Shown here: in pieces, positions 30,135 through 40,470 of the stretch
Numbering within the stretch: the stretch's first letter is position 1
How the letters are laid out: each line of letters starts with the position of its first letter
Source: Candidatus Peregrinibacteria bacterium
GTDB taxonomy: Bacteria; Patescibacteriota; Gracilibacteria; UM-FILTER-43-11
Assembly: GCA_016934215.1 (NCBI GenBank)
Contig: JAFGTE010000033.1
Location: 8,781 to 72,780, forward strand
Length of the DNA stretch: 64,000 nucleotides
Direction of reading: 5' to 3'
Program-made: the position numbers and the translations under genes
The notes under the pieces: generated by a model
What the model saw: the letters and a program-made list of their open reading frames with translations, nothing else
What the model was told of the DNA's origin: nothing
Databases searched by the model: none

Positions 30135-32228
30135 CTAAGTACCAATCGCAATCCAGTTAAAACTTTCACCGTTGTTACTTGAATCAACGGTTATGGTGAA
30201 TTGAGTAGTGGTTGTATTTGAAATATGATACCAAGTGTCGTTGTTACCGATTGTATCGGAACTATTCGGAGTAACTACCACAACAGGCGGACTGGTGAAA
30301 GTTTTATTAAAGGCTGTTGTTACGGAGTTGCCCGCTGTATTGGCAGTAGTTCCGTAGTCGATTACAGGTACACCAGTAGCGATAGCTTCAAAGGCTCCTC
30401 CGTCATTGCTTAATACCCATTGATTACTTGCGGCATCATATCCAATGATGCCGTTATTATCGGAACCCTGATTTACGATAATACCAACGTTTGCTCCGGG
30501 GCCGGTGTTATCATAATCAAGTGTAATAATGGTTCCATTAGTAAAGATATTGTCAGTGAATCCAAAAGCTGCGTTTGAGCTATCCCAGCCGAATAAATGA
30601 TCTGTTCCGTCATCAAAAGTAATATAGGAAAGTGCGGCGTTTCCATTGCCGATTTCCATTACCGCTCCTGTTCTTTCGATATCTATCGGGGCTGTTGCTG
30701 AAGCAATGCCGATACCGATGTTACCGGATGCGTCGATACTCCAATCGTTACTTGCCACAATAAAATCGTTGGTGCCGGTGTTGATTGTGAAGGCGCCATT
30801 GCCTGTAGTAAGGGTTTTGTCCACGTCGGTTGTATAAACACCCTCGAAATCCGAAGAACCGCCACCACCTGAGGCCGTAATGTCTTCCCAGACACTTCCG
30901 CTCCAGATGTAGGTGTTGTTGTCACTCGTGTTGTGGTAGATTTGACCCGCGACCGGACTTCCGGGGGCTGAAGACGCATTGTGCAAAGCGACATCGCGGA
31001 TCTGATTCTGGCCAAAGCTCAGATCGTCTGAAATCTGAAACTGGTCATTTGTATCGTTCCAGGTCAGGTTTTCCCAGGTGTTGCTATTTCTGCCTAAGCT
31101 CAGGGTTCCGTCGCTGTCGGTAGCCGCGTGGTCGTCTGCGACGTAGGCTTGTCCAATAACTGCTAAGTTGCCTTCAGCCCTCAGAGCGTCTGTTAAGGTG
31201 AAACGGCTATTGGAAGAATCCCAGAAAAGAGTTTCAGCCAGAGCGGTTCCAAATTGTAAGGTTACGTTGCCTCCGGTATCATCGTTATCAAGGATGAATG
31301 TATTTGAATCAGTTCCGATGTCAGTGTTTTGGGTATGGTTTCCTTCGCCTCCGCCACCCCCTTCCACTCTGGAAATCACCAGTGCAGAACCGCCTGCCAA
31401 AGTAGCAATGTTGGAGCTACCACTACTGCGTTGGGCCTGTATTTTAAGTTTATCCCCGGCACTCAGGTCTAAAGTGAAACTGCGGCTTGCTGTGGCATCC
31501 CCCTGAGTCGCGGTTCGGTTATACATTTTTGCGATAGAGCCAGCAACAGCGGCATAGCCTGAACCGGTATCCAGCATCAGCCTGGCTTCTGATTCACTTC
31601 GGTTGGTGCCGGAGGTAATATCGGTTGTGACTGCGTAGTTTACATAATAGGTTCCGTCAGTATTTACGGTGATTTCAGCTGAACCGGTTGAATGAGTGAA
31701 GTCAGTCGTTTTCTTTCTTTCTGTTCCCAGGGGTATATCCGTGAAGCCTGCATCAATACTGGTTCCTCCCGTTGAATCGTAGGCATCAAAGTATTCTGCG
31801 GTTCCACTACTTCCTCCACTACCAAAAGTCGTGAAGGCACCCCCATCGTTGCTATATTCCCACTCGTTAGTTGTGGCATTGTAGCGAATGGTTCCGTCAT
31901 TGTCGGAACCCTGGTTGGCGATAATATTAACCGTATTACCCGCTCCTGCATTATCTGCGTCCAGTGTTATATTTAAACCGTTCTGGCTAAAACCTCCGTC
32001 TATCGTGAGATCATCACTCAGATCAAAATTGAGGGTTGAGCTGTTCCATCTCAGGTATTTCCCAAGTGAAGCGCCGAACTGAAGGGTCACATTGCCTCCG
32101 GTATCATCAGCGTCCAGAATAATCGTGTTGGAAGCATTTTCATCTTCGTCGCTTGGCACAAAGTCGGCCAGTGCAAGTTGTGGAAGCAGTAGGGTAATAC
32201 CTGCGATGATGACGAGGAGTTTTTTCAT
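30135..32228 (-). CDS. Large secreted repeat protein A, a member of the TLQFG / NQNQIK / GQIYHNT module family.
   Basis: The signal peptide is [21 protein letters not shown]. Modules include [66 protein letters not shown] and [51 protein letters not shown]. Confidence 0.75.
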   Translation of the reverse strand: [697 protein letters not shown]

Positions 32229-32231
32229 TTT

Positions 32232-40100: not shown

Positions 40101-40470
40101 AGCTGGTGGTGACAATCTGGCAATTGACGCATTGCAGATTGCCGCTATTAAAACCATAACTGCTACAAGTGAGCCCATTGAAATCCGTTCCCTCACACTG
40201 TTCACCGGTTTCGATGATTCCGTTTCCGCATGTTGGGCCAACAACGGCAGGACTTGCGTAAACGTTGCGCAAATTGTAGCTGGCGGAACTGCCATCAGCG
40301 CTTATATCTGAAATGGAATCTGTGAGATTGTAGCTGGAACTTGTCTTTTGGTCTGAGTCGCTGATGAACCTGGCATAGTCGAGCCGGTAACTAGCACTGG
40401 TGCTGCTTTCGGCCAGGGCTCCTGGAGCCATTAAAATACCCAGAAGCACTAACATGAAAACAATACTCAT
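37180..40470 (-). CDS. Giant composite surface protein D. It has a signal peptide, three Myxococcus-type Cys-rich repeats, a proline-rich duplicated linker, a mid-protein TM segment, a second signal-like segment, the module-family region and the shared C-terminal domain.
   Basis: The ATG at 40470 gives [20 protein letters not shown]; the track's GTG at 40620 is an alternative start. Cys-rich repeats are [41 protein letters not shown] and [27 protein letters not shown]. The family module reads [79 protein letters not shown]. Confidence 0.75.
   Translation of the reverse strand: [1096 protein letters not shown]
39697..39771. repeat. Tandem duplication with a 45-bp period inside gene D.
   Basis: CGGAGCGGCGGGTTTCAGACCGGGTTCTTC occurs at 39697-39726 and again at 39742-39771. 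It encodes [10 protein letters not shown] twice. Confidence 0.9.

Follow-up and report, generated by a model that had tools for sequence, protein, structure and literature searches.

Four mosaic secreted proteins of a Candidatus Peregrinibacteria genome share a two-part module with a phage-fibre-like half and are probable surface fibres

The stretch of DNA analysed here (the window; 64,000 nucleotides of contig JAFGTE010000033.1, assembly GCA_016934215.1, Candidatus Peregrinibacteria bacterium) carries four adjacent minus-strand genes whose products, proteins A to D, share a module of about 92 amino acids (aa). Proteins of this region match NCBI entries MBN2307259-MBN2307272 of a Candidatus Peregrinibacteria metagenome-assembled genome (MAG) exactly, and MBN2307262 (A) and MBN2307264 (C) are both labelled 'hypothetical protein' there. 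The original prediction, made from the sequence alone, described four adjacent giant secreted proteins; all four open reading frames (ORFs) are present, and at 700-1150 aa they are large rather than giant. The end that it gave for the block, 40470, corresponds to Met51 of D, where the signal peptide begins and where translation of D likely starts. Signal peptides were assigned to all four by inspection and a hydropathy scan, each as a signal-peptide-like hydrophobic segment ending in an AxA-type site, and a comparable hydrophobic N-terminal segment is present in 56 of 62 Met-starting relatives.

The module occurs as three full copies (B46-137, D745-836 and A363-452) and as three N-terminal halves standing alone (A33-80, A308-350 and B480-524). 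A hidden Markov model (HMM) seeded from two copies recovered B46-137 (E 1.6e-55), D745-836 (1.1e-55) and A363-450 (8e-25), and found the N-half-only copies A34-91, A308-350 and B480-524 at 2.5e-6 to 4.6e-8, well beyond chance. A family HMM built from 56 sequences re-found the copies at 1e-10 to 1e-39 (A33-80, 8e-12; A363-452, 3.7e-35; D745-836, 4e-39) and detected no further ones in a six-frame translation of the window. All of the positions proposed earlier map onto these copies, although what had been counted as three copies in A are two N-halves and one full module. Protein C does contain the divergent copy suspected there (aa ~190-275); the module HMM does not detect it, and its link to the family comes from transitive phmmer searches, which place it in register with the full modules of relatives P0093 and P0105 (P numbers denote proteins and L numbers genomic loci). 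The DNA identity of about 70% reported between copies applies to the best 66-nt core (61-71%), with whole copies at 53-63%, and a search for DGR-like (diversity-generating retroelement) or recent DNA duplicates returned only short cores of 61-76% identity and one 45-nt tandem repeat.

The whole module has no match in Pfam or NCBIfam even at E 10, a profile search of the PDB gave only non-significant matches, and PDB sequence searches with A-D returned nothing except pappalysin-type Cys repeats in the N-terminal half of D. The view that this is no known domain thus stands for the module as a whole, with the qualification that its C-terminal half (C-half; ..NQNQIKN..IDNLA.AP..P..GQIY.NT.D..TY.W.G..W) and the N-termini of phage virion fibre proteins are homologous. 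Only this half matches phrog_8309 and phrog_38707 (B83-137, D785-836 and A399-447; E ~1e-10 to 1e-13), aligning to the very start of both profiles (positions 3-54 at E ~1e-12 to 1e-13); A and B match about the first 55 PHROG positions only (E 1e-10 to 1e-13), the remainder being unmatched, and D matches phrog_38707 over positions 6-191. Foldseek against BFVD aligned 52-57 columns, those of the C-half, at a root-mean-square deviation (rmsd) of 1.1-1.5 A and 31-44% identity, the partners being Mtd_N-containing, collagen-repeat, lambda Stf-repeat and tail-fibre proteins. In tblastn searches, Streptococcus prophage 'tail fiber' proteins carry the C-half at their very start; P0005, with a phage-type N-terminus, has 432 relatives in IMG/VR; and at L021 a C-half-type N-terminal element occurs in a 379-aa protein with a full-length phrog_8309 match, which sits between tail-fibre genes and near a major head protein. 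The C-half core is also part of a short repeat that is widespread and occurs in alternation with collagen. Pfam families DUF7360, DUF2793 and CFSR match relatives only and never the window modules, even at E 10: P0002 reaches the DUF7360 cutoff, and P0013, P0067 and a prophage fibre protein score below it. In precomputed Pfam records, PF26696.1, the name of which was not established, is assigned to P0002 and P0015, both with the C-half motif; there is nothing on B or C, and A and D carry only other families.

The N-terminal half (N-half; SNTFILD.DD.GG.VTLQFG..L.E.L.WD..N..F), by comparison, is peculiar to this bacterial family. No phage protein was found to carry it: the BFVD matches cover C-half columns only, and a pattern scan of IMG/VR for the full module, of limited sensitivity and no proof of absence, found none. 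The N-half stands where the mature protein or an internal cassette begins: an N-half-starting copy lies within the first 70 aa in 54 of 65 module proteins, at least two such copies are present in 47 of them, and 85 copies are internal. The N-half follows within 15 aa in 17 of 18 H.[QE]NTD motifs, which come after Gly-rich linkers, as in A288-312 and B459-484. Because it marks cassette starts, we regard the N-half as the joint at which cassettes are exchanged, and the module would then combine a phage-derived C-half with a lineage-specific N-half.

An exhaustive profile search covering 1.84 billion cluster representatives placed 4420 representatives in the family at E<=1e-3, 575 at E<=1e-10 and 43 at E<=1e-30, whereas a word-indexed protein search was insensitive for it (5, 10 and 2 matches). 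Among the best 154 representatives, on which the class and collagen counts below are based, 64 contain the full module, usually at aa ~40-135 and following a signal peptide and one of two leaders, 'ARIVF.NEF.IE..G' or 'ADDFVP..EE'. In the other 90 the match falls mainly on the C-terminal part of the profile, and in many it is confined to the last ~35 positions (P..P..GQIY.NT.D..Y.W.G..W), repeated in tandem up to 19 times. A genome scan with a 3-sequence alignment found three loci only: L002 belongs to a MAG of Candidatus Peregrinibacteria, L003 to one carrying the label Candidatus Gracilibacteria, and L004 to a MAG without classification.

Comparison with these relatives strongly supports the domain shuffling proposed earlier, in that the same cassettes recur in other orders and fusions. 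P0006, from L002, joins a B-like and an A-like part within a single protein of 1449 aa (BLAST against relatives). The cassette formed by A33-293 (N-half, 'NQGSDNDG' unit and BclA_C), N-terminal in A, is C-terminal in P0011, P0081, P0090 and P0095, and the BclA_C cassette is C-terminal in most relatives; P0137 consists of the module and the tip of B. As the same cassettes recombine across relatives, A and B look like two fibre cassettes in series. The middle domain of B (aa 138-458) is 52-64% identical to parts of P0006, P0007, P0008, P0020 and P0154. Separately, proteins at least 90% identical to P0006 bear the NCBI label 'Candidatus Pacearchaeota archaeon' (KAR91_...), as does P0159, a homologue of the C-terminal domain; these labels are probably a binning error in that MAG.

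The domains that end the four proteins, or in A also interrupt it, are of types found at the tips of fibres (Table 1). The segment A153-288 scores 37.6 bits against BclA_C (PF18573; cutoff 38) and spans profile positions 6-127 of 128, and this domain is found in 17 of 62 module-bearing relatives at E<=1e-3 (best 1e-18). At the C-terminus of A, aa 636-694 score 25.3 bits against H_lectin (PF09458; cutoff 24, E 1.6e-5). The C-terminal domain shared by C and D is confirmed at a size of ~165 aa, and in a model of D837-1146 it forms a confident beta-sandwich; in the PDB it most resembles the Klebsiella phage K2-2 tailspike (E 3e-6), FlaA1, CBM61/6/11, a MAM domain, Kp7 gp52 and CBA120 TSP4. Given the matches to K2-2, carbohydrate-binding modules and TSP4, the C/D domain is therefore a CBM-like jelly roll of the kind found at tailspike C-termini. 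The C-terminal domain of B is distantly related to it (hhalign probability 89%, E 2e-6). The earlier term 'adhesin' is plausible in the light of these BclA_C/TNF-like, H-type lectin and CBM-like tips.

Table 1. Features of proteins A-D, of the neighbouring SLH-repeat gene and of protein E (window positions)
Feature	Position	Strand	Basis or remark
Protein A, 697 aa, MBN2307262	30135..32228	-	predicted secreted fibre protein, two cassettes
A aa 33-80, module N-half, after signal peptide and acidic leader	31989..32132	-	HMM
A aa 153-288, BclA_C-like (TNF/C1q-type)	31365..31772	-	E 2.3e-9
A aa 289-350, Gly-rich junction with H.QNTD, then second N-half	31179..31364	-	HMM and motif
A aa 363-452, full module	30873..31142	-	E 3.7e-35
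A aa 623-697, H-type lectin / Gp53-like_C tip	30138..30362	-	H_lectin 25.3 bits
Protein B, 723 aa	32232..34403	-	predicted secreted fibre protein
B aa 46-137, full module after signal peptide and leader RIVFKSEFLIEDNG	33993..34268	-	HMM; copy used for folding
B aa 138-458, middle domain, fold unrecognised	33030..33992	-	comparison of relatives
B aa 459-524, Gly-rich/H.QNTD junction and N-half	32832..33029	-	HMM and motif
B aa 525-723, tip cassette	32235..32831	-	last ~120 aa distantly akin to C/D C-terminal domain
Protein C, 763 aa, MBN2307264	34557..36848	-	
C aa ~190-275, divergent module, Cys-pair variant of C-half	36024..36281	-	phmmer
C aa 599-763, C-terminal CBM-like jelly roll	34560..35054	-	HMM E 2e-55
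Protein D, 1146 aa from GTG	37180..40620	-	Cys-repeat ectodomain fused to fibre half
D aa 527-577, transmembrane helix, basic loop, signal-peptide-like helix ending AFA|AVTTP	38890..39042	-	
D aa 578-744, fibre-half N-terminal domain (YEGKLLD...)	38389..38889	-	weak sub-threshold Bdello_MAT_N similarity
D aa 745-836, full module	38113..38388	-	E 4e-39
D aa 986-1146, C-terminal CBM-like jelly roll	37183..37665	-	pLDDT >90; HMM 6e-70
SLH-repeat neighbour	29035..30132	+	signal peptide, three SLH repeats, SLH 96 bits
Protein E, 1060 aa, signal peptide, six VGIG..P...L.V motifs, C-terminal Peptidase_S74	44132..47314	+	Pfam and motif scan

Protein D is a conserved fusion, running from a signal peptide through Cys-rich repeats (myxo_disulf_rpt, 83 bits; DUF4215), a transmembrane (TM) helix, a basic loop and a signal-peptide-like helix into the fibre half. 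Either D is cut within its chain or it stays in the membrane as a protein with two ectodomains. D-type fibre halves also occur free, with ordinary signal peptides, in P0044, P0053, P0104 and L003_551, and the hairpin of D aa 527-577 is kept in P0041, P0026 and P0060. A 45-nt tandem repeat with 80% identity at 39676-39765 codes for Pro/Glu-rich linker units in the N-terminal half of D. In protein C, a repeat 'GAS.VGIEDA....T....E.A..EI' was observed at aa 489-522 and 562-595 (35064-35384, minus strand; z = 14 against shuffled sequence), in a region that includes a weak match to phrog_7154; we take this repeat to resemble motifs at the start of the receptor-binding parts of phage tailspikes.

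AlphaFold2 modelling of B46-137 with the 56-sequence alignment gave a confident all-beta fold of seven strands (mean pLDDT 92.5). Its nearest PDB folds, all non-significant, come from trimeric phage proteins and trimerisation units: the N-terminal part of CBA120 TSP4 (probability 0.99, 58 columns), CBA120 TSP3 (39 columns, 28% identity, rmsd 1.1 A), the trimerisation domain of collagen XV/XVIII (27 columns, rmsd ~1.5 A) and, also near, Mtd. As a lead only, module positions ~25-74 have a neck-like resemblance to 2ynz, a fragment of the trimeric autotransporter adhesin SadA ('L.WD....F.....N.I.NVA'), at a non-significant E 0.24 (hhalign probability 49%). The YadA-type membrane anchor, head and stalk repeats have no Pfam match at E<=1 in A-D.

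Elements that require three chains recur beside the module, which points indirectly to a three-chain setting. Runs of G-X-Y (at least 7 triplets) are present in 21 of the 154 representatives; in tandem C-half proteins the C-half core alternates with collagen runs at a spacing of 3-5 residues, and in the module-bearing P0130, P0096 and P0072 collagen runs lie 4-11 residues from an N-half. The 62 module-bearing proteins include trimer-linked domains of three types: BclA_C in 17, Collagen in 3 and C1q in 1. Since the module stands in line with obligate-trimer elements, we infer that it should be threefold as well, and A-D, judged by this context, probably form trimers.

We therefore consider it probable, and hold with moderate confidence, that A-D are secreted, probably trimeric, mosaic surface fibres of a non-S74 type with glycan-binding tips, in which the module acts as a connector and register unit. 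Each protein would be a chain of cassettes of phage tail- or virion-fibre type ending in a globular, probably sugar-binding domain, and the 92-aa module would be a structural connector rather than a binding domain, its C-half most likely setting or keeping the register of the three chains. The N-terminus of the fibre may lie near the cell, with the product of the SLH-repeat gene as a candidate anchor, and the tips at the C-terminal end would face away from it, where they would recognise glycans on the surface of another cell. The analysis itself established the homologies, the architecture, the synteny and the monomer folds; trimer formation, surface location, glycan binding and a part in attachment are proposed on top of these.

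Several points weigh against this interpretation, and some of them are shared by an alternative in which A-D are monomeric 'beads-on-a-string' surface or S-layer-associated proteins and the module is a beta-sandwich spacer, like the Ig-like repeats of adhesins, with no role in trimerisation. The module folds confidently as a single chain (pLDDT 92.5) and so could be a self-contained domain, and a Foldseek search of it against the PDB gave no match with E below 0.1. No collagen runs, S74 chaperone, SLH domain or recognisable anchor were found in A-D, which leaves their attachment to the cell unexplained, and the absence of collagen and S74 elements would suit a chain of beads. The TNF-like domain internal to A is awkward for a simple linear fibre and fits a bead chain better than a fibre with a single tip. 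Moreover, the linker of D (aa 837-985) is poorly modelled, and that the tips probably bind sugars is judged from fold class only. A monomeric spacer does not, however, sit well with a C-half that is homologous to phage fibre N-termini, with relatives in which collagen runs come immediately next to the C-half core and the N-half, or with the frequency of obligate-trimer domains (BclA_C in 17/62, plus C1q and Collagen), and we regard the beads-on-a-string reading as unlikely. The suggestion of an S-layer association has as its sole basis the conserved SLH neighbour, as no SLH domain is detected by Pfam in A-D and only the gene at 29035-30132 carries one.

The chromosomal setting bears on two further alternatives. 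In the window, the str operon is split by A-D together with the SLH-protein gene: rpoB, rpoC, rpsL and rpsG lie on the 5' side of this block, and fusA, tuf and the S10 operon on its 3' side. The gene order from rpsG to the SLH gene to fibre genes is common to three loci (the window, L002 and L007), with the upstream rpsL/rpsG context before the SLH gene recurring in L002 and L007, and the number and composition of the fibre genes vary between the three. The 90%-identity cluster of the L007 S12 protein includes a Peregrinibacteria protein. The SLH neighbour is a candidate partner for anchoring to the cell wall, a role suggested by this conserved position.

Phage-type elements throughout A-D and around them (the C-half, the tailspike-like jelly roll, phrog matches and a nearby S74 gene) could be read as the remnant of a prophage, or as tail-fibre genes of a domesticated prophage or tailocin that still serve a phage-like particle. 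All of these proteins carry signal peptides, however, which virion fibres lack; no phage capsid, terminase, tail or baseplate genes were found near A-D, where the flanks are ribosomal and translation genes (rpoB/rpoC, rpsL, rpsG, fusA, tuf and the S10 operon); three loci use one and the same chromosomal site; and the IMG/VR pattern scan, within its limited sensitivity, returned no full module. We hold a particle-borne role to be highly improbable. Only somewhat less improbable, and still very unlikely, is that A-D are released lectin-like effectors, akin to bacteriocins or agglutinins, that act away from the producing cell. Signal peptides without a recognisable anchor, and tips of lectin, TNF or CBM-like type, would suit such proteins, but no toxin or enzyme domain was detected in A-D with Pfam or NCBIfam, D-type proteins have TM segments, and the conserved leaders, the module placed right after the cleavage site and the conserved SLH neighbour suggest docking to the cell. 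Overall, prophage, toxin and S-layer-lattice readings of A-D rank low compared with secreted trimeric fibres.

A fifth fibre gene, E, sits between fusA and tuf, 3.5 kb from A-D. Its Peptidase_S74 domain (aa 949-1006) scores 45.6 bits against a cutoff of 22, and its C-terminus matches phage long-tail-fibre chains in the PDB. E contains no copy of the 92-aa module, and Peptidase_S74 is absent from A-D in Pfam. The module had no name before this analysis, and the original prediction contained neither its phage-fibre character, nor its likely trimeric nature, nor the S74 gene E.

Other features of the locus were observed in passing. Across window positions 27764-49638, the series rpsL-rpsG-fusA-tuf is interrupted at two places by surface-protein genes. 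Promoter and terminator scans gave nothing above shuffled expectation. Away from the fibre genes, the patch 16001-18000 has a G+C content of 0.496 against ~0.43 around it and contains two long ORFs overlapping on opposite strands (16679-17524, plus; 16778-17503, minus); an Rfam search of this patch found no RNA. At L003, a type IV pilin-like ORF with the N-terminus KKAFTLVELIIVIAIVAILAG (10060-10611, minus strand) directly follows the fibre gene cluster.

Host recognition and attachment in the Candidate Phyla Radiation (CPR)/Patescibacteria are largely unknown beyond type IV pili (PMC12206443), and we found no description of this module family in CPR in the literature. A-D are good candidates for proteins by which such uncultivated, tiny-genome bacteria attach to other cells, and a fibre set that is conserved, rapidly shuffled and equipped with lectin-type tips supplies concrete candidates for CPR host attachment. 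The module itself is a well-defined new domain family with hundreds of 50%-identity clusters, a confident fold and no significant solved homologue, and an entry for it in domain databases would make many 'hypothetical proteins' recognisable as fibre proteins. More tentatively, and as a possibility rather than an expectation, Peregrinibacteria and some related lineages may possess their own CPR fibre system for recognising hosts, either convergent with the MAT fibres of Bdellovibrio or remotely related to them, in which a two-part connector strings together phage-derived cassettes with two different heads per fibre, and whose repertoire is kept in a conserved str-operon hotspot beside an SLH anchor protein. 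If true, the reuse of phage receptor-binding hardware shown in Bdellovibrio would extend to CPR.

Among known systems, the phage fibres of phrog_8309/phrog_38707 and the CBA120-type tailspikes resemble A-D in two respects, the module C-half being homologous to their first ~55 residues and the C/D tip resembling tailspike C-terminal jelly rolls. They differ in lacking the N-half and a signal peptide and in lying within virion structural modules; moreover, the element occurs in them once and N-terminally, whereas here it is also internal and always follows an N-half. The BclA filaments of the exosporium nap share with this family the BclA_C-type TNF-like domain (in A and 17/62 relatives) and an arrangement with N-terminal anchoring and a C-terminal tip, and collagen-flanked surface repeat proteins resemble the many proteins in which the C-half core alternates with collagen runs; unlike both, A-D have no G-X-Y collagen stalk.

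The closest known system is the MAT superfamily of Bdellovibrio bacteriovorus, phage-like, mosaic, trimeric fibres (Caulton et al. 2024, PMC10769870) to which A-D appear analogous, without being members by the N-domain test. MATs combine an invariant N-domain and a stalk of intertwined trimeric beta-prism and helix, with the capping-loop motif V-G-G/N-pi-X-X-P-X-X-X-L, with variable tips of TNF-like, lectin or novel beta-sandwich fold, and fall into S74 and non-S74 subgroups (PMC10769870). Here, too, a multi-gene repertoire of secreted phage-fibre-like mosaics has a conserved N-terminal part and exchangeable C-terminal tips, including TNF-like and lectin folds (BclA_C-like and H_lectin in A, the CBM-like jelly roll in C and D and its distant relative in B), and S74 (E) and non-S74 (A-D) types stand side by side. 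As to the VGIG..P...L stalk motif, a strict regular expression for the capping loop matches once in D (aa 904), six times in E and not in A-C, against a shuffled expectation of <0.01. The Bdello_MAT_N model (NF053851, cutoff 60 bits) gives no match in A, B or C and, far under its cutoff, 12.4 bits in D (E 0.1, aa 570-611); five of eight D-type relatives reach 13.5-20.6 bits, mostly over the first ~45 of 162 positions and up to 78 in P0024. The two systems also differ in that the 92-aa module has not been described for MATs, in that the host here is a monoderm-like CPR bacterium rather than a diderm predator, and in the chaining of cassettes, which in A and B would place two heads in series.

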